IMG/VR virus record: IMGVR_UViG_2529292736_000008
Direction: 5' to 3' (one strand)
Source: a virus
Taxonomy: Duplodnaviria > Heunggongvirae > Uroviricota > Caudoviricetes
DNA length: 10,551 nucleotides
Shown here: one piece after another, positions 1-10,551 of the stretch
Numbering within the stretch: position 1 is the first letter of the stretch
Layout of the letters: each line of letters opens with the position of its first letter
Made by a program: the position numbers and the translations under genes
Notes under the pieces: generated by a model
The model's input: the letters and a program-made list of their open reading frames with translations, nothing else
Databases searched by the model: none
Told to the model about the DNA's origin: nothing

Positions 1-636
1 TGACTGGCGGTATAACGGCAGATGGTCTGCATATTTTCCGGTGACAACATGGGCCAGAAGCCCCGCTCCGGCATAACTGCGTGCAATGGGTTTTGAAGGT
101 ACTGGTGCCTGCACGATATGGTCGCACCGGCAACAGGCCAGTTTCGGACGTTGTGTTTCGATAACCTTAAAGGCGCTGCTGATAAGCTCCAGTTGCTCTG
201 ACACATCACATCCCAGAGAACTGAGTTCACCACCACAGGCAGGACAGCATTCCTCTTCCGGCAGGATAACCCGGGTTTCACGGGGAAGTGAGGCCGGTAA
301 CGGTTTACGGGCTGAAGACTGGCGCAGGGCGGATGGCAGTACCGGGTCATATTGCTCACCCAGCGTTTCCGCCATTTCTTCCTGAAGTGCGCTGATTCGC
401 TCCTGTGCTTCCTGTATCTGCCGTTCGGTTTTTGCACGAAGTTTTTCTGAGCTTTTACCGAACTGCATACGTTGCAGTTTCGCAACCAGCGCCTTCAGCC
501 GGTTGATTTCGGAAGCATAAGCCGCCACCCGCTGTGAGAGCAGGCGGTTGTATTCAGCCATCTGGCGTATGGTGTCCTGTTGCGTCTGCAACAGTGCCCG
601 CAGGCGGGCGTTCTCATGAGCAAGTGAGGTGTCCAT
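1..636 (-). CDS. tnpC: IS66-family transposase TnpC, N-terminal 212 codons (continues beyond window start)
   Basis: Minus-strand ATG at 636..634; translation MDTSLAHENARLRALLQTQQ... with leucine-zipper-like region and CxxC...CxxC zinc-finger motif (PACGGEL...CCRCDH), typical of IS66 TnpC; frame open to position 1. Not in the ORF track because it has no stop within the window. Confidence 0.85.
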   Translation of the reverse strand, partial: MDTSLAHENARLRALLQTQQDTIRQMAEYNRLLSQRVAAYASEINRLKALVAKLQRMQFGKSSEKLRAKTERQIQEAQERISALQEEMAETLGEQYDPVLPSALRQSSARKPLPASLPRETRVILPEEECCPACGGELSSLGCDVSEQLELISSAFKVIETQRPKLACCRCDHIVQAPVPSKPIARSYAGAGLLAHVVTGKYADHLPLYRQS

Positions 637-655
637 ATCCTCACTTTACAACGGG

Positions 656-1003
656 TTATATGCGGATTCCAGCGCGTTCCGTTCGTTTCGGGTGCTTCCA
701 GTTGATACCTTCAAGAAGCATGGATAACTGAGCCGGAGTAAGGTGCACCTTGCCGTCACGGGTGACTGGCCAGACGAAGCGGCCCCGCTCCAGGCGTTTG
801 GTGAAGAGGCACAGTCCGTCACTGTCAGCCCACAACACTTTTATCTGGTCACCCCGGCGTCCGCGGAAGATGAACAGGTGTCCGGAGAACGGGTCATCCT
901 TCAGGACGTTCTGAACTTTTGATGCCAGGCCGTTAAAGCCATTTCGCATATCGGTGATACCTGCAACCAGCCAGATACGCGAACCTGCAGGGAGAGATAT
1001 CAT
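656..1003 (-). CDS. tnpB: IS66-family accessory protein TnpB (115 aa)
   Basis: 115-aa ORF of characteristic IS66 Orf2 size and sequence (WLVAGITDMRNGFNGLA...), start overlapping the tnpA stop. Confidence 0.9.
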   Translation of the reverse strand: MISLPAGSRIWLVAGITDMRNGFNGLASKVQNVLKDDPFSGHLFIFRGRRGDQIKVLWADSDGLCLFTKRLERGRFVWPVTRDGKVHLTPAQLSMLLEGINWKHPKRTERAGIRI

Positions 1004-1680
1004 CAGTGGCTGCTCCCTTTTATTTCGCGGATAAGTGTCTGTAATAACGCCGGCGTCAGTTTACCTTTAAGCCTGAGAGTTCCGGCCGGCAGAACCAGCT
1101 CACAACACAGACTGTCGGACGGTGTATTTATCTGCTCTGGTTCCTGTGCGGGGGCCGGGATTTTATTATCCGGCTCCGGCGTTAACGTCACGGGAAGCAG
1201 TGCCGGCATATTTTTTCCGGAAGGCAGCAGGCCACCTTTCCGGTATTGATGGCGCCAGTTGAAGAGCTGGTTATCGTTGATTCCGTTTTCCCGGGCGATC
1301 TGCGCCACACAGGCTCCGGGCTGCAGTGACTGCTCCACTAAGGCGATTTTAAACTCATAAGGGAAGTTGGGCCGCCGGGGACGTTTTTTTACCACGGGGG
1401 CTTCGGATATAACGGTGCTTTCAGGACGTACGACTGGTACCGTGGAAAATTGTCCGTAAAGGCAGGCATCAAGTTCCTGCTCCGACATGCCTGCGGGCAA
1501 AGGCCACGAAAGGCCAGCTCTCCGAAAGCGCACGAACATACTACAAACTGTTGATTTTGGTACACCCAGGCGACGCCCGGCCACAACCCGGGGTAAATGT
1601 TCTTCAAAGTGAAGACGTAAAGCTTCAGTGATCCAGGTCCGGTGTTTCATACGATAGTGTCCATTAAAAATGATGGACAT
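1003..1680 (-). CDS. tnpA: IS66-family TnpA (Orf1), 225-aa ORF; true start may be an internal Met (e.g. 1488)
   Basis: C-terminal half carries the IS66 Orf1 HTH-like motif ([52 protein letters not shown]). N-terminal ~64 aa is an extra HTH-like extension ([19 protein letters not shown]). Confidence 0.75.
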
Positions 1681-1710
1681 TATTTTTGTAGAGCCGGAGG
1701 AAACAGACCA

Positions 1711-2505
1711 GACGGTTTAAATGAGCCGGTTACTGCCGGTATTGAGAACACCCCTGACGGCATGCAGAGTCAGGTGCTGCTGGCGGCGGACAGGATTGCG
1801 ATGGTTAATCCTGCGAATGGCAACACAAAACCGATGTTTGTTGGTCAGGGCGATCAGATATTCATGAACGACGTGTTCCTGAAACGCCTGACGGCCCCCA
1901 CCATTACCAGCGGTGGAAATCCACCGGCATTTTCCCTGACTCCGGACGGAAAGCTGACCGCTAAAAATGCGGATATCAGTGGCAGTGTGAATGCGAACGC
2001 CGGGACGCTCAACAATGTCACGGTAAATGAAAACTGTACGATTAAGGGCATGCTGGAGGCGACTCAGGTCAGAGGTGACTTCGTTAAAGCTGTATCCAAA
2101 TCATTCCCGAAACAGGCTGGTACGTGGGGTAACACGGAAACACCAAACGGGACGGTTACAGTCACCATAAGCGATGATCATAACTTTGACCGTCAAATCA
2201 TTATTCCGCCCATTATCTTTAACGGAATAGCGTATAGCGATCCGGGAAGTGGTAATAACCCGGGAGGTACAAGATACACGGGTTATGGTTTTGAAGTTCG
2301 CAAAAACGGTGTATTAATCGCATCCAGAGAAACTAAAGGGGCTATTCCCGGTAGCTACAGTGCGGTTATTGATATGCCGAGTGGCAGGGGAAGCGTCACT
2401 CTGGAGTTTAAGGTTTTCCATAAAGGCAATCAGTGGGCAGGTAATATCACCGACTGTACGGTGATTGTGACCAAAAAAGCCGCTTCCGGCATCAGTATTC
2501 GTTGA
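1711..2505 (+). pseudogene. J: Tail tip host-specificity protein J, C-terminal fragment (5' part removed by IS66-family insertion)
   Basis: Translation ...[81 protein letters not shown]... matches the recalled C-terminus of lambda gpJ. No J-like N-terminus; in-frame stop at 1618..1620 and IS sequence upstream. Start coordinate approximate. Confidence 0.8.
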
Positions 2506-2523
2506 AATTGTTATAACCCATAT

Positions 2524-2550
2524 AAGGGCACCAGAAATGGTGCCTTTTTT
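2524..2550 (+). terminator. Rho-independent terminator between J and lom
   Basis: Stem GGCACC (2527..2532), loop AGAAAT, stem GGTGCC (2539..2544), followed by TTTTTT (2545..2550). Confidence 0.6.
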
Positions 2551-2574
2551 ATTGCAGAAAAGCGAGAGGTAATT

Positions 2575-3175
2575 ATGCGTAAACTTTATGCCGCCATTTT
2601 GTCCGCAGCCATTTGTCTGGCCGTATCCGGTGCGCCTGCATGGGCATCTGAACATCAGTCCACGCTGAGCGCGGGGTATCTTCATGCCTTGACGAACGTT
2701 CCCGGCAGCGATGATCTTAACGGGATTAACGTGAAATACCGTTATGAGTTTACGGACACACTGGGGCTGGTGACGTCATTCAGCTATGCAGGAGACAAGA
2801 ATCGCCAGCTTACCCGTTACAGCGATACCCGCTGGCATGAAGATTCAGTGCGTAACCGCTGGTTCAGCGTGATGGCGGGGCCGTCTGTGCGCGTGAATGA
2901 ATGGTTCAGCGCGTATGCGATGGCGGGTATGGCTTACAGCCGTGTTTCGACTTTCTCCGGGGATTATCTCCGCGTAACTGACAACAAGGGGAAAACGCAC
3001 GACGTGCTGACCGGAAGTGATGACGGTCGCCACAGCAACACGTCTCTGGCGTGGGGGGGCTGGCGTGCAGTTTAACCCGACCGAATCCGTGGCCATTGAT
3101 ATTGCTTATGAAGGCTCCGGCAGTGGTGACTGGCGCACTGACGGTTTCATCGTGGGTGTCGGTTATAAATTCTGA
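2575..3175 (+). CDS. lom: Lom outer-membrane protein (Ail/Lom family); reading frame broken by a +1 frameshift in a G7 run (3053..3059). As written the ORF stops at 3075 (166 aa); the remaining 38 codons continue in the next frame to TGA at 3173..3175.
   Basis: N-terminal 160 aa match recalled lambda Lom ([37 protein letters not shown]...). After the G-run the +1 frame reads [38 protein letters not shown], the Lom C-terminus. RBS GAGAGG 5 nt upstream of ATG. Confidence 0.85.
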
Positions 3176-3200
3176 TTAGCCAGGTAACACAGTGTTATGA

Positions 3201-3229
3201 CAGCCCGCCGGTTCAGGCGGGCTTTTTGT
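3201..3229 (+). terminator. Rho-independent terminator downstream of lom
   Basis: Stem AGCCCGCC (3202..3209), loop GGTTCA, stem GGCGGGCT (3216..3223), then TTTTTGT. It overlaps the ATG at 3197 offered by the ORF track, so that start is rejected. Confidence 0.65.
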
Positions 3230-3238
3230 GGGGTGAAT

Positions 3239-6200
3239 ATGGCAGTAAAGATTTCAGGTGTACTGAAAGACGGCACAGGAAAACCGGTACAGAACTGCAC
3301 AATCCAGCTGAAAGCAAAACGTAACAGCACCACGGTGGTGGTGAACACGCTGGCCTCAGAAAATCCGGATGAAGCCGGGCGTTACAGCATGGACGTTGAG
3401 TACGGTCAGTACAGCGTTATTCTGTTGGTGGAAGGCTTCCCGCCGTCACATGCCGGGACCATCACCGTGTATGAAGATTCCCGACCCGGTACGCTGAATG
3501 ATTTTCTCGGTGCCATGACGGAGGATGATGCCCGTCCGGAGGCACTGCGCCGTTTTGAACTGATGGTGGAAGAGGTGGCGCGTAACGCGTCCGCAGTGGC
3601 ACAGAACACGGCAGCCGCGAAGAAGTCAGCCAGTGATGCCAGCACATCTGCCCGTGAGGCGGCAACCCATGCAACCGATGCTGCAGGCTCAGCACGTGCC
3701 GCCAGCACGTCAGCCGGACAGGCTGCATCATCTGCTCAGTCAGCATCTTCCAGCGCAGGAACGGCATCAACAAAGGCCAGTGAAGCATCGAAAAGTGCTG
3801 CTGCTGCAGAGTCCTCAAAAAGCGCGGCAGCTACCAGTGCCAGTGCCGCGAAAACGTCAGAAACGAATGCGGCAGCGTCACAAAAATCTGCAGCCACTTC
3901 TGCATCCGCCGCGACCACGAAGGCGTCAGAAGCTGCCACCTCAGCCCGGGATGCGGCGGCCTCAAAAGAGGCAGCGAAATCATCAGAAACGAACGCATCA
4001 TCAAGCGCCAGTAGTGCAGCTTCCTCGGCAACGGCGGCAGGAAATTCCGCGAAGGCGGCAAAGACGTCTGAGACAAACGCTAAGTCTTCTGAGACGGCAG
4101 CGGAACAGAGTGCCTCCGCAGCAGCAGACTCAAAAACAGCGGCTGCATCATCTGCCAGCGCCGCGTCAACAAGTGCCGGGCAGGCCTCAGCCAGTGCCAC
4201 CGCCGCCGGAAAGTCGGCAGAAAGTGCCGCATCGTCTGCTTCAACAGCCACAACGAAGGCTGGCGAAGCCACTGAACAGGCCAGCGCAGCAGCGAGTTCT
4301 GCTTCCGCAGCGAAGACATCCGAAACGAACGCGAAAGCGTCGGAAACCCGTGCAGAATCCTCAAAAACGGCTGCCGCATCGTCAGCCAGTTCGGCGGCGT
4401 CATCGGCATCATCTGCGTCTGCTTCAAAAGATGAGGCGACCAGACAAGCGTCAGCAGCGAAGAGCAGCGCCACGACGGCATCCACGAAGGCGACAGAGGC
4501 AGCTGGCAGTGCGACGGCGGCAGCACAGAGCAAAAGTACGGCGGAATCCGCGGCAACGCGCGCCGAGACAGCGGCAAAACGGGCAGAGGATATTGCATCC
4601 GCCGTGGCGCTTGAGGATGCGAGCACGACGAAAAAGGGGGTAGTACAGCTCAGCAGTGCGACCAACAGTACGTCTGAAACGCTGGCGGCAACGCCAAAGG
4701 CAGTAAAATCAGCCTATGACAATGCAGAGAAACGTCTGCAGAAAGACCAGAACGGCGCTGATATACCCGATAAGGGACACTTCCTGAACAACATTAACGC
4801 GGTCAGTAAAACAGACTTTGCTGATAAGCGCGGTATGCGTTATGTGCGGGTTAATGCTCCTGCAGGTGCAACATCTGGAAAATATTACCCTGTTGTTGTT
4901 ATGCGTTCTGCTGGCTCAGTAAGCGAACTGGCATCAAGGGTCATTATCACCACGGCAACGCGAACCGCAGGCGATCCGATGAATAACTGCGAGTTTAACG
5001 GATTTGTTATGCCTGGTGGCTGGACTGACAGGGGGCGTTATGCTTATGGCATGTTCTGGCAATATCAAAACAATGAACGAGCCATCCACTCAATAATGAT
5101 GAGTAATAAGGGCGATGATTTGCGCTCTGTGTTCTATGTTGATGGCGCTGCTTTCCCTGTTTTTGCGTTTATCGAAGATGGCCTGTCAATATCCGCACCT
5201 GGTGCTGATCTCGTTGTTAATGATACGACCTATAAGTTTGGGGCAACAAATCCGGCGACTGAATGTATCGCGGCGGACGTTGTCCTTGATTTTAAGAGTG
5301 GGCGTGGTTTTTATGAGTCTCATTCGTTAATCGTTAACGATAACTTGTCGTGCAAAAAACTTTTTGCCACAGACGAAATTGTAGCGCGTGGTGGTAATCA
5401 GATTCGAATGATAGGTGGGGAGTATGGTGCATTATGGCGTAATGATGGCGCTAAAACTTACCTGCTGCTTACCAATCAAGGTGATGTTTATGGTGGCTGG
5501 AATACATTAAGACCGTTTGCTATTGATAACGCAACCGGCGAACTGATTATTGGAACCAAACTGTCCGCAAGTCTGAACGGTAATGCATTAACAGCAACAA
5601 AGCTGCAAACGCCAAGACTGGTTTCTGGTGTTGAGTTTGATGGTTCCAAAGATATTACTTTAACCGCTGCGCATGTGGCTGCTTTTGCCAGAAGGGCAAC
5701 TGATACATATGCCGATGCGGATGGTGGCGTTCCCTGGAATGCCGAATCAGGCGCTTACAATGTCACCCGCTCTGGCGACAGCTATATTCTGGTTAACTTC
5801 TATACCGGAGTCGGAAGTTGCCGGACCCTGCAGATGAAGGCGCATTACAGAAATGGAGGTCTGTTCTACCGTTCCTCAAGAGATGGCTATGGTTTTGAGG
5901 AAGACTGGGCAGAAGTTTATACCTCGAAAAATCTTCCACCAGAAAGCTACCCAGTCGGCGCACCAATCCCGTGGCCATCAGATACCGTTCCGTCTGGCTA
6001 TGCCCTGATGCAGGGGCAGACTTTTGACAAATCTGCATACCCGAAACTTGCAGTGGCTTATCCGTCAGGCGTTATTCCTGATATGCGTGGCTGGACGATT
6101 AAGGGCAAACCTGCCAGTGGTCGTGCCGTATTGTCTCAGGAACAGGACGGCATTAAATCGCACACCCACAGCGCCAGCGCATCCAGTACGGATTTGGGTA

Positions 6201-6505
6201 CGAAAACCACATCGTCGTTTGATTACGGCACTAAATCCACGAATAACACCGGGGCTCATACGCATAGTCTGAGCGGCTCTACAAGCTCGGCTGGAGCACA
6301 CTCGCACGTTGATGGGCGCAGGTTTAATACAAGCACTTTTAAAGACACCTATCAGTATGGTTCTACAGCTGTCGGAAGTAACTCATACCAGGTACAAGGG
6401 GCGGTTGGTCTGGGCGTTGGTACGATGGCGAATACGAACTCTGCTGGCGCGCACACCCACTCACTGTCCGGCACTGCTGCAAGCGCAGGCGCACACGCAC
6501 ATTGA
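3239..6505 (+). CDS. stf: Side tail fibre protein Stf, 5' portion (1088 codons), truncated by IS629; stop codon TGA (6503..6505) is supplied by the IS629 terminus
   Basis: Starts [26 protein letters not shown]..., the conserved lambda Stf N-terminus (recalled). Long Ala/Ser/Thr-rich shaft, a central lower-GC module, then lambda-like C-terminal region GAPIPWPSD...GAHTHSLSG...AGAHAH. Confidence 0.85.
3590..4640 (+). repeat. Degenerate in-frame coding repeats (Ala/Ser/Thr-rich fibre shaft) inside stf
   Basis: Recurring units such as AAKTSETNA(K/A)...SAA(A/T)SAS at DNA ~3841, ~4050 and ~4310; GC-rich GCN/TCN codon runs. This composition explains the long spurious ORFs on other frames and strands. 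Confidence 0.5.
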
Positions 6506-6527
6506 ACCGCCCCGGGTTTCCTGGAGA
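6503..6527. repeat. IS629 terminal inverted repeat (stf-proximal end)
   Basis: TGAACCGCCCCGGGTTTCCTGGAGA; reverse complement of 7787..7811 is TGAACCGCCCCGGGAATCCTGGAGA. Confidence 0.85.
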
Positions 6528-6544
6528 GTGTTTTATCTGTGAAC

Positions 6545-7431
6545 TCAGGCTGCCAGATCATCGTTTCCGATGGAAGCATAATAAGCTTTTTCTGCTTCTG
6601 CCGGTGGGATATGGCCCAGCCTTTCCAGCAATCGTCGATTGTTATACCAGTCCACCCACGTGAGTGTGGCCAGCTCCACTTCTGTCCGGTTTTTCCAGCT
6701 CTTACGGTGTATTACCTCCGCTTTGTAAAGGCCATTGATGCTCTCCGCCATCGCGTTGTCATACGAGTCACCAGTACTTCCTGTTGATGCCAGTAATCCG
6801 GCTTCCTTAAGCCGCTGTGTGTAGGCCAGCGATACATACTGAGAACCTTTATCACTGTGATGGACTGTGCCGGACGGTCGACGGGCCCATAACGCCTGCT
6901 CCAGAGCATCCAGCACGAATGTCGTTTCCATAGACGATGAGACCCGCCACCCCACGATGTATCCGGCAAACACATCAATGATGAACGCCACATAGACGAC
7001 CCCCTGCCATGTGCTGACGTAAGTAAAATCAGCCACCCACAACTGGTCAGGACGTTCTGCCACAAACTGACGGTTTACGCGGTCGCCTGCGGCAACGGCT
7101 TTCCGGCTGACGGTAGTGCGGACCTTTTTACCCCGGAGAACACCGGCAAGTCCCATAACCGCCATGAGGCGCGCCACTGTACATCTGGCTACCCTGATTC
7201 CTTCCCGTAACAACTGACGCCAGACTTTACGCACACCGTATACCTGATGATTCCCATCGTATACGCGCAGTATCTCTTTCTTCAGCCAGTCATCGCGCTG
7301 CGCACGGGCACTGCGTTTATCAGGATGATGTCGCTGTTGCTGACAGTGTAATACGTTGACGGGGCAATATGTAGTTCACTGCATACCGGTCCGACCCCGT
7401 ACAGCTTACGCAGCTTATCCAGCAGTGGCAT
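6545..7431 (-). pseudogene. IS629 transposase OrfB (DDE integrase domain), frameshifted near 7345..7352; longest intact ORF is 6545..7234 (229 aa from GTG)
   Basis: ATG at 7431..7429 opens [28 protein letters not shown], which then runs into a stop. The following frame continues HCQQQRHHPDKRSARAQRDDWLKKEILRVYDGNHQVYGV-RKVWRQLL... through the DDE catalytic region (LWVADFTYV...HHSDKGSQY...YDNAMAES). The two halves are in different frames. Confidence 0.8.
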
Positions 7432-7757
7432 CACTTTTTCCAGAGGCGGTCGAACTCCGCCTTCGCAAAATAAGCGGAAGCCTGGCGAAGGATATCGTTA
7501 CTGCGGCGCAGTTCACGATTTTCACGTTCCAGCTCTTTCAGACGCTGACGTTCAGCGGTGGTGAGCCCGCCATCACCGCCTCCGGTATCCCGCTCATGCT
7601 GGCGTACCCAGACACGCAGAGTCTCCGGTGTACAGTCAATCTTTGGGGCAATGGAACAAATTGCCGCCCACTGTGAGTCATATTCGCCCTGACTTTCCAG
7701 AACCATACGAATCGCCCTCTGACGGACTTCGGGGGAAAAACGAGTATTTTTAGTCAT
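7431..7757 (-). CDS. IS629 transposase OrfA (108 aa, HTH)
   Basis: [30 protein letters not shown]..., IS3-family OrfA with C-terminal leucine-zipper-like region; stop TGA overlaps the orfB ATG (TGATG). Confidence 0.9.
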
Positions 7758-7786
7758 CCTGTTTACCTCTTTCTCAGGGAGTTTAG

Positions 7787-7811
7787 TCTCCAGGATTCCC
7801 GGGGCGGTTCA
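7787..7811. repeat. IS629 terminal inverted repeat (tfa-proximal end)
   Basis: See 6503..6527; 23/25 identity in inverted orientation. Confidence 0.85.
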
Positions 7812-7949
7812 CATACTGTCGGTATTGGTGCACACACGCACTCCGTTGCGATTGGTTCACATGGACACACCATCACCGTTAACGCTGCTGGTAACGCGGA
7901 AAACACCGTCAAAAACATTGCATTTAACTATATTGTGAGGCTTGCATAA
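7812..7949 (+). pseudogene. stf: stf 3' remnant (last 45 codons of side tail fibre gene, separated from the body by IS629)
   Basis: Reads (H)[44 protein letters not shown], matching the recalled lambda Stf C-terminus; stop TAA overlaps the tfa ATG (TAATG). Confidence 0.85.
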
Positions 7950-8533
7950 TGGCATTCAGAATGAGTGAACAAGCACGGACCATAAAAATTTATAATCTGC
8001 TGGCCGGAACTAATGAATTTATTGGTGAAGGTGACGCATATATTCCGCCTCATACAGGTCTGCCAGCAAACAGTACCGATATTGCACCACCAGATATTCC
8101 TGCTGGCTTTGTGGCTGTTTTCAACAGTGATGAGGCATCGTGGCATCTCGTTGAAGACCATCGGGGAAAAACGGTTTATGACGTAGCGTCAGGGGACGAG
8201 TTATTTATTTCTGAACTCGGTCCGTTACCGGAAAATGTTACCTGGTTATCGCCGGAAGGGGAGTTTCAGAAGTGGAACGGCACAGCCTGGGTGAAGGATA
8301 CGGAAGCAGAAAAAATGTTCCGGATCCGGGAGGCGGAAGAAACAAAAAACAACCTGATGCAGGTAGCCAGTGAGCATATTGCGCCGCTTCAGGATGCTGC
8401 AGATCTGGAAATTGCAACGGAGGAAGAAACCTCATTGCTGGAAGCCTGGAAAAAGTATCGGGTGTTGCTGAACCGTGTTGATACATCAACTGCACCTGAT
8501 ATTGAGTGGCCTACGAACCCTGTCAGGGAGTAA
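7949..8533 (+). CDS. tfa: Tail fibre assembly protein Tfa (194 aa), intact
   Basis: [54 protein letters not shown]...[13 protein letters not shown]; near-identical in length and sequence to recalled lambda Tfa; coupled to the stf stop. Confidence 0.9.
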
Positions 8534-8582
8534 TCATTGGGATTATGCCGCAGCACGTCTTAAGCAAGAACGTGCTGCGGTT
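8366..8582 (+). repeat. Direct repeat copy 1 (~217 bp): tfa 3' end (last ~55 codons) plus downstream hairpin
   Basis: Aligns by eye with 9415..9632 at roughly 85-90% identity, including exact blocks CGTGTTGATACATCAACTGCACCTGATATTGAGTGGCCT and CCTGTCAGGGAGTAATCATTGGGATTATGCCGCAG. Confidence 0.8.
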
Positions 8583-8587
8583 GGATG

Positions 8588-9256
8588 CTATTTTTTCCCT
8601 GAAGCGGAAAACATTACTACAGTACCTTGAACCTTGGTTTTAACATTCTCGAAATGCTCTGAGAGTATATGTGTTAAGCCTTCTTCGGAATCTTTTGTGT
8701 TTGAAAAGATGCCTTTCTGATTGTAAATGCGCATCAGTTTTTGACCGAAGCTATTGTGCACAACTCCATCGCCAAGAATTGTGGCTCCGTATAGAGTTCC
8801 ATCGTCAGTTAAGGCCTGCGCCGCATTGCGTATTACACAGCTTTTTGTAGATATATTTCCAGGCAGGCAGTGAAGAAGGTAAAACATGGAAATGGAATCA
8901 AATTGACCATGTAACGCCGCGGGATAAGGTTCAAAAACATCATGGCTAATTTTATGTTTAATTTTTGATTCCCCAGCCCTTGTAGATGCCGCGTTCAGGC
9001 TAGCTTCGTTCAAATCCATTAAAGATATCAGACTACTCTCAGGTACGTGAGTAAGGTAAAACCCAGTTCCAACACCAATATCCAGATGGTTGTTACCTAC
9101 ATGTTCCAGAAAGTGTGGAAGAAGGTGTTCCTTTGTAGGACATCCCCATGCAAGCCGATTTGATACTCCCAAAACCCACCAGTCATAAAGCTTTAGGGTA
9201 AGTGGTGTGTAAATTTTAGCCCCATCATCTGTGTTTTTTTTCATTGATTTCACCAT
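8588..9256 (-). CDS. Putative class I (Rossmann-fold) SAM-dependent methyltransferase, 222 aa; AT-rich cargo gene
   Basis: Motif I LDIGVGTGFY (hh[DE]hGxGxG), acidic end of beta-2 (ISLMDLN), motif II/III-like FDSISMFYLLHCLP and LTDDGTLYGATIL. No DPPY/NPPY or PC-Q DNA-methyltransferase motifs, so the substrate is unclear. GC content visibly lower than the flanking phage genes. Confidence 0.7.
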   Translation of the reverse strand: MVKSMKKNTDDGAKIYTPLTLKLYDWWVLGVSNRLAWGCPTKEHLLPHFLEHVGNNHLDIGVGTGFYLTHVPESSLISLMDLNEASLNAASTRAGESKIKHKISHDVFEPYPAALHGQFDSISMFYLLHCLPGNISTKSCVIRNAAQALTDDGTLYGATILGDGVVHNSFGQKLMRIYNQKGIFSNTKDSEEGLTHILSEHFENVKTKVQGTVVMFSASGKK

Positions 9257-9285
9257 GTTATAGTTTTATTTGTGAATTAAATCAA
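9257..9285 (-). promoter_or_regulatory. Candidate sigma70-like promoter upstream of the methyltransferase gene (-35 TTGATT, 17-bp spacer, -10 TATAAC)
   Basis: Minus-strand reading TTGATT(9285..9280)-N17-TATAAC(9262..9257) directly abutting the first ATG. If used, translation would start at the second in-frame ATG (9244..9242) on a near-leaderless mRNA. Motif match only. Confidence 0.3.
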
Positions 9286-9312
9286 TTATGGCGATGAATT
9301 ACAAGGGGTTAA

Positions 9313-9582
9313 ATGCTGCCGCAGCATAGCGATATTGAAATAGCCTGGTATGCTTCGATACAGCAGGAGCCGAATGGCTGGAAGACCGTCACCACACAGT
9401 TCTACATCCAGGAATTCAGTGAGTATATTGCGCCACTGCAGGATGCTGTAGATCTGGAAATCGCAACGGAGGAAGAAAGATCGTTGCTGGAGGCATGGAA
9501 TAAATATCGGGTATTGTTGAATCGTGTTGATACATCAACTGCACCTGATATTGAGTGGCCTGCAAATCCTGTCAGGGAGTAA
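9313..9582 (+). CDS. tfa' - chimeric small ORF (89 aa): unrelated 35-aa N-terminus fused to a duplicated Tfa C-terminal domain
   Basis: C-terminal 54 aa ([53 protein letters not shown]) parallel the Tfa C-terminus at 8372..8533. ATG preceded by AAGGGG 4 nt upstream. May be a remnant or an expressed mini-Tfa. Confidence 0.5.
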
Positions 9583-9632
9583 TCATTGGGATTATGCCGC
9601 AGACACGTCGTATGCAGGAACGTGCTGCGGTT
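9415..9632 (+). repeat. Direct repeat copy 2 (~218 bp) of tfa 3' end plus hairpin
   Basis: See 8366..8582. Confidence 0.8.
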
Positions 9633-9696
9633 AGTTTGTGAGCTTTCGATAGTGGTTGTTATTTTTGCCCTTATTTGTTCCGGAGGCCATGGTTCA

Positions 9697-9867
9697 ATGG
9701 TCCGTCTGCCCCCTGTGGTGATGTCAGCAAAATCAGCCACTGCGCGAACCACAATAGCCCGGGAAGATGCTGAAGATCACCAGGTAAAGCTGTCAGCGCA
9801 GAAACTGGAAGAACTGCTCGCATCAATGGTTAAGGATGAGGTTGATCGCAATGATGGGATTTATTGA
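9697..9867 (+). CDS. Hypothetical small protein (56 aa)
   Basis: ATG at 9697 with GGAGG (9682..9686) 10 nt upstream; ORF ends 95 nt before a strong terminator hairpin. The track's 93-aa version starts at a TTG inside the repeat hairpin and is less plausible. No recognisable domain. Confidence 0.35.
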   Translation: MVRLPPVVMSAKSATARTTIAREDAEDHQVKLSAQKLEELLASMVKDEVDRNDGIY

Positions 9868-9961
9868 CGTCAGCGAGAGCAGAAGGAAGAACTGAATAAC
9901 CTGAATGATTTACGCTCAATCAGAGCGATGGCGATTAGCGGCAATCACGCTCGATAAAATT

Positions 9962-9987
9962 AACCCCGGTGATCATCCGGGGTTTTG
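9962..9987. terminator. Bidirectional rho-independent terminator between convergent genes
   Basis: AACCCCGG (9962..9969) - TGATCAT - CCGGGGTT (9977..9984), with TTTT after it on the plus strand and A-run before it (U-run on the minus strand). Confidence 0.6.
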
Positions 9988-9993
9988 CATTCA

Positions 9994-10551
9994 TTAAAAC
10001 CGCATCAACCTTTCCACCAATTGTTCTTTACGGGCAACGATCCACCCATGTTGCTCCAGATAAAATTTAAACCGTTCCAGCGTGCATACCATCGCATCGG
10101 CGGGGACTTTTTCTGTGAACTCGACCTGACCGTGTTTATCGAAGTGGATCAGTAATGCGCATCCATTATTTGGGGCGGGGGAGTTTTGTGCTGCAGGAGG
10201 ACGTTTGTGGAGTTCTTCTTCCATTGCGTTAAATTTTTCAATGTAAGCTTCTTTTAGTCTGGCTGCTTTTTTGCCAGTAAATCCCATTACGAGGAACATG
10301 AAGCCGTCTTTTGTGATCAGGTAGCATCGTGATTCACGTTCTGCGCCGTTGCCAATTTCGACAGTCTGAACATCGGCCGAAAAGTTGGCTGATGTAAATT
10401 CGGGAGAGCAGTCGAGTGTGTCAATCTTAGCTAAAACGTGTTTATGTTGTTTATCGAAGTAGTCGGCAACAGCTTGAGAGGTGGTAACCAGGCGACCATC
10501 TTTGAAAAAGACTTTTGGTGACTCGTTAGAAAAAGTTATAGCTGTATTCAT
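9994..10551 (-). CDS. Rha-family phage regulatory protein (185 aa as read; start codon coincides with the window edge, so the N-terminus may be incomplete)
   Basis: N-terminal region ...GRLVTTSQAVADYFDKQHKHVLAKIDTL...YLITKDGFMFLVMGFTGKKAARLKEAYIEKFNAMEEEL resembles the Rha (pRha) regulatory domain (recalled). C-terminal ~70 aa of unknown function. Confidence 0.7.
   Translation of the reverse strand: MNTAITFSNESPKVFFKDGRLVTTSQAVADYFDKQHKHVLAKIDTLDCSPEFTSANFSADVQTVEIGNGAERESRCYLITKDGFMFLVMGFTGKKAARLKEAYIEKFNAMEEELHKRPPAAQNSPAPNNGCALLIHFDKHGQVEFTEKVPADAMVCTLERFKFYLEQHGWIVARKEQLVERLMRF

Follow-up and report, generated by a model that had tools for sequence, protein, structure and literature searches.

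The sequence analyzed here is a 10,551-nucleotide stretch of DNA, hereafter called the window, that is 100% identical to bases 2..10552 of a 100,846-bp contig from Escherichia coli DEC13E (AIHJ01000020.1). The contig begins within an insertion sequence (IS) of the ISCro1 type, and the window opens one base into the contig. Beyond the right edge of the window, the contig continues with a partial ompW gene, yciE and yciF, and the sequence represents the right arm of a lambdoid prophage located at ompW. From left to right, it holds the right-hand part of the IS, the 3' remnant of the tail-tip gene J, the lom gene, and a side tail fiber gene (stf) that is split by a second IS. The features surrounding the junction between the first IS and J are collected in Table 1.

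Table 1. Features at the left end of the window. Positions are window coordinates; L005 denotes the numbering of the DEC13D contig sequence.
Feature	Position	Strand	Remarks
ISCro1-like IS66-family IS, right-hand 1733 bp of 2699	1..1733	-	Remainder lies past the window and the contig start
tnpC (DDE transposase), N-terminal 212 codons, ATG at 636	1..636	-	Runs off the window edge; LZ_Tnp_IS66, zf-IS66 and start of DDE_Tnp_IS66 (Pfam), transpos_IS66 (NCBIfam)
tnpB, IS66 accessory protein, 115 aa, intact	656..1003	-	Pfam TnpB_IS66, E 4.7e-40; NCBIfam IS66_TnpB, E 5.2e-38
tnpA, IS66-like accessory protein, 225 aa, intact	1003..1680	-	NCBIfam IS66_access_TnpA, E 1.7e-87; Pfam HTH_Tnp_1
Chimeric ORF, mechanically called, 287 aa	1642..2505	+	GTG and ~31 codons within the IS, running into the J frame
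Terminal inverted repeat	1712..1733	.	Read outward-in, GTAACCGGCTCATTTAAACCGT; its partner at the opposite terminus of complete copies is GTAAGCGACTCGTCAGAACCGT
3' J remnant (tail-tip / host-specificity)	1734..2505	+	256 whole codons (residues 910-1165; 1735..2502) plus stop; fiber and C-terminal receptor-binding domain
Target duplication TGCCGGTA, right copy	1734..1741	.	Identical octamer just before the left IS end (DEC13D, L005 553-560)
Terminator-like hairpin downstream of J	2524..2547	+	

The IS66-family genes in the window are real, with profile matches far beyond chance. Pfam and NCBIfam profiles recover the tnpA-tnpB-tnpC order of this family, with tnpC partial, and a profile search finds a complete 523-amino-acid tnpC in ISCro1 copies of identical type. 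By BLAST, window bases 1..1733 share ~99.5% identity with hundreds of copies from E. coli to which PGAP gives the label 'IS66-like element ISCro1 family', and the name used here rests on those labels. Full-length copies measure 2699 bp, and the copy in the related strain DEC13D is 2700 bp (L005 561-3260). One substitution, at base 1268 in tnpA, is specific to the window copy when it is compared with other ISCro1 copies. ISCro1 was first catalogued in Citrobacter rodentium ICC168 and is widespread in E. coli. It is a known element that has expanded in C. rodentium (PMC3072379), and E. coli regulatory regions are known targets for its insertion (PMC8764528).

Alignment with four copies located in unrelated contexts (DCE7, O103:H2 strain 129, WWCOL-315 and O39:H21) places the end of the IS at window base 1733 (...GAGCCGGTTAC). 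All four copies and the window have sequence in common through ...AATGAGCCGGTTAC and then differ; thus, the IS stops at 1733. This position replaces the boundary at ~1680 or 1740 that had been given by the initial annotation. An end near 1740, as implied by BLAST extents of 1740-1751, was rejected on the basis of the copy-by-copy alignment, which reveals chance extension into the flanks. At their opposite ends, the aligned copies all start GTAAGCGACTCGTCAGAACCG. IS66 terminal repeats were looked for and are present. In full copies, GTAAGCGACTCGTCAGAACCGT and GTAACCGGCTCATTTAAACCGT form imperfect inverted repeats that each start 5'-GTAA. An 8-bp target duplication is a hallmark of the IS66 family, and two of the aligned copies, including that of DCE7, carry their own (GTATAGCG and CCTGTAAT).

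Homology to J starts exactly at base 1734 when the window is compared with intact J genes of complete genomes and phages, and from this base onward the DNA is 98.6% identical to the J-lom region of phage phi458. The Pfam domains Phage_Tail_Tip and Ig_GpJ_C are encoded in the plus-strand ORF that ends at 2505, and lom is the next gene. The remnant corresponds to positions 908-1163 of the 1163 in the NCBIfam model lambda_TipJ (NF049904; E 7.5e-108) and scores 361 bits, where the cut-off is 1950. It represents a fragment of the gene and does not belong to the full-length J proteins of ~1130-1165 amino acids. An ATG-started form of 247 amino acids has an exact match in AIHJ01000020.1. The initial annotation had described an IS66-family element whose tnpA end adjoins the 3' part of J, which the profiles and copy alignments bear out, and it was also right that the window holds neither a J N-terminus nor an intact J. 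Its figure of ~265 codons is corrected by the count of whole codons listed in Table 1. Judged by its sequence, the piece of J in the window cannot be expected to function as a J protein.

The chimeric ORF that enters J from within the IS is probably not a gene. A promoter scan of 1400..2700 found no sigma-70-like promoter for it, and an exact look-up of its 287-amino-acid product found no gene on record. It is very improbable that this ORF is expressed in the lysogen to yield a free receptor-binding fragment, which might then exclude related phages by occupying the outer-membrane receptor.

Because the source contig starts inside the IS, the lack of J 5' sequence in the window is uninformative as to deletion. 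As the initial annotation had stated, the exact junction is beyond reach from the window alone, and copies from elsewhere were needed. A 34-nucleotide junction pattern has one exact match in IMG/VR, the AIHI01000009.1 sequence from E. coli DEC13D. This sequence is 99.88% identical to window bases 1..6502, with eight differences that comprise five substitutions and three indels. Given these differences and the divergence further downstream, DEC13D represents a sister strain rather than the same record. Four of the five substitutions fall within window bases 1..263, and all three indels are homopolymer-length differences. A hybrid IS at the window start was considered and rejected, since the clustered base differences are polymorphisms common to other ISCro1 copies and lend no real weight to a rearrangement; such a cluster could be expected where a draft assembly has collapsed a multi-copy repeat. 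In a third assembly, a 1343-bp contig opens inside J and does not cover the junction.

The DEC13D contig holds the whole IS and has the same right junction as the window. Moreover, J sequence oriented like the window remnant runs right up to the left IS end. The left flank in DEC13D reads ...CGCGGGTATTGGTGCCGGTA|GTAAGCGG..., and the right IS end in the window reads ...CCGGTTAC|TGCCGGTATTGAGAAC.... The octamer TGCCGGTA therefore borders both IS ends as a clean 8-bp duplication, with its left copy read in DEC13D and its right copy in the window. In the intact J of phi458, this octamer is present once at the corresponding place, nucleotides 2727-2734. When the left J fragment is joined to the window remnant, minus one octamer, the product aligns without gaps over 939 nucleotides to phi458 J nucleotides 2560-3498, with 99.1% identity. 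The presence of the octamer on both flanks and the gap-free J obtained after removal of the IS are characteristic of a simple transposition into an intact target.

Only 175 bp of J (nucleotides 2560-2734) are present to the left of ISCro1 in DEC13D. These abut a terminal sequence that we take to be the end of IS2, and IS2 sequence extends to the contig start (L005 1-385). The initial annotation had spoken of the IS66-family element as truncating J, which implies loss of 5' sequence at the junction. This implication is at odds with DEC13D, where J of the same orientation lies directly left of the IS with a clean duplication of TGCCGGTA. It had also proposed that an intact J region on that side, in the same orientation and with a clean duplication, would indicate a simple insertion. 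The orientation and the duplication are as it described, but the left J is not intact, with IS2 located 175 bp upstream. Overall, the truncation interpretation is partly supported.

A chimeric IS2-J-ISCro1 ORF crosses the left junction, and a look-up found it on record only for DEC13D. Since the spanning ORF is recorded for that strain only, the presence of this left junction in DEC13E is inferred from shared ancestry, and it is possible that DEC13E later underwent a rearrangement mediated by the IS. A junction search of 5,426 complete E. coli genomes in RefSeq found the DEC13 junction in none of them. An apparent full-length match in DCE7 proved to be a different insertion site.

We consider it very likely that the ISCro1-like IS inserted into J by simple transposition in the common ancestor of DEC13D and DEC13E, leaving a tail-defective prophage. 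In this history, a 2699-bp element would have entered J of the lambdoid prophage at the ompW locus through ordinary DDE transposition at TGCCGGTA (J nucleotides 2727-2734, within codons 909-912 of 1165), and the octamer would have been duplicated in the process. The left junction in DEC13E would then consist of J nucleotides 2560-2734, ending ...TGCCGGTA, followed by GTAAGCGGCTCG (GTAAGCG...). The IS genes point in the direction opposite to J, and the first ~911 codons of J, with the hub-forming part, are cut off from the last 256, which encode the distal fiber and the receptor-binding domain. Lambda J is needed for tail-tip assembly and receptor binding. With J split at codons 909-912, full-length J would no longer be made, and because J is essential for these two functions in lambda, the prophage is predicted to be unable to build an infectious tail.

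An alternative is that J is truly truncated at this junction, such that the IS marks a deletion end-point and the 5' part of J was lost through an IS-mediated adjacent deletion or through recombination between two ISCro1 copies. The window lacks J 5' sequence, the DEC13E contig ends within the IS, and the base differences between DEC13E and DEC13D crowd at that contig end. Tandem and nested ISCro1 copies are known elsewhere, which makes recombination between IS copies plausible in principle. However, DEC13D has the identical right junction, a clean 8-bp duplication and J carrying on to the left, and the crowded differences are the shared polymorphisms noted above. Thus, a deletion ending at ISCro1 seems unlikely. 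The idea that the junction is an assembly artifact, in which an IS copy and a J fragment of unrelated origin ended up in one chimeric contig, could draw on the draft status of both assemblies and on the fact that their indel differences are all homopolymer-length. This explanation appears extremely improbable given that the junction was assembled independently in two strains and falls exactly at the true IS terminus, with the expected 8-bp duplication.

A different kind of truncation, caused by the upstream IS2 rather than by ISCro1, merits more serious attention, and we regard it as a real possibility while leaning somewhat against it. In this scenario, J nucleotides 1-2559 and possibly more tail genes were deleted. 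In DEC13D, the distance from ISCro1 to the IS2 end on its left is 175 bp, the contig starts within IS2, and nothing upstream is linked to it. In addition, the prophage is clearly decaying, as seen from the IS629 copy in stf. Such a deletion is compatible with a simple insertion of ISCro1 at its own junction.

The second element in the window is an IS3-family IS of 1309 bp (6503..7811) that splits stf and is flanked by a 3-bp duplication, CAT, at 6500-6502 and 7812-7814. DEC13D lacks this element. The records that match it carry the annotation IS1203 family, which we take to be equivalent to IS629. Its orfB is split across two ORFs (6545..7234 and 7282..7434), so that this copy may carry damage or a sequencing error. 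No record matched the stf-IS629 fusion product in an exact look-up.

The lom gene (window 2575-3175) is shortened to 166 amino acids by a run of seven G nucleotides at ~3050-3056, whereas DEC13D has six and a 199-amino-acid Lom. Because all three indels between the strains are homopolymer-length differences, sequencing error is suggested for the G-run difference. However, other genomes, complete chromosomes among them, likewise have 166-amino-acid forms of Lom on record, and it is possible that the G run is really prone to slippage.

Beyond the 3' end of stf (window 7810-8511 compared with L005 8025-8726), the identity between DEC13E and DEC13D drops from 99.9% to 96%, and window bases 8512-10551 have no further match to DEC13D. 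The tail-fiber tip and tfa region has undergone recombinational exchange between the two sister prophages, which are otherwise near-identical. Two direct repeats of ~215 bp (8368-8582 and 9417-9632) are 89.8% identical and represent the 3' parts of tail fiber assembly genes. They flank a gene for a class I SAM-dependent methyltransferase on the minus strand (8588..9256). The module composed of stf, tfa, the methyltransferase gene and a partial tfa is kept in many E. coli prophages.

The lambdoid prophage at the ompW site of the DEC13 lineage is therefore best annotated as defective in its tail genes, with lesions in J from ISCro1, and from IS2 in DEC13D, and a lesion in stf from IS629 in DEC13E. 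The ISCro1 site, which the two strains share, and the IS629 site, which is strain-specific, could act as lineage markers. This locus also serves as a reminder that a contig starting inside an IS is not to be taken as a deletion. Both the IS and the prophage gene that it interrupts are known, such an insertion is not unusual, and the significance of the finding extends little beyond annotation.

Independent insertions of ISCro1 are also found elsewhere within J or next to it. In DCE7, the element lies within the last ~280 nucleotides of J and has its own 8-bp duplication; in 19KM2326N, it is ~513 nucleotides from the J end; and in ES5, it is located between J and lom. These three cases involve the same IS, the same kind of prophage module and the same orientation relative to J-lom as the window, although this agreement in orientation could simply result from the way in which the search joined matches, and their insertion sites differ from that of the DEC13 strains. 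In E. coli O103:H2 strain 129 (L002 1-4233), two ISCro1 copies are arranged head to tail beside a truncated gpU tail gene, with the second copy inserted in the terminal repeat of the first.

ISCro1 copies elsewhere have the same order of tnpA (225 amino acids), tnpB (115 amino acids) and tnpC as the window element, and share its termini and its 8-bp duplication. The copy described previously is quoted at 2,824 bp (PMC8764528), whereas the present copies measure 2,699 bp. When compared with lambda gpJ, the window remnant matches positions 908-1163 of the lambda_TipJ profile end to end. However, lambda gpJ is a full-length protein with N-terminal hub domains, FN3 repeats, a fiber and a receptor-binding domain, whereas the window holds only the last 256 of 1165 codons.
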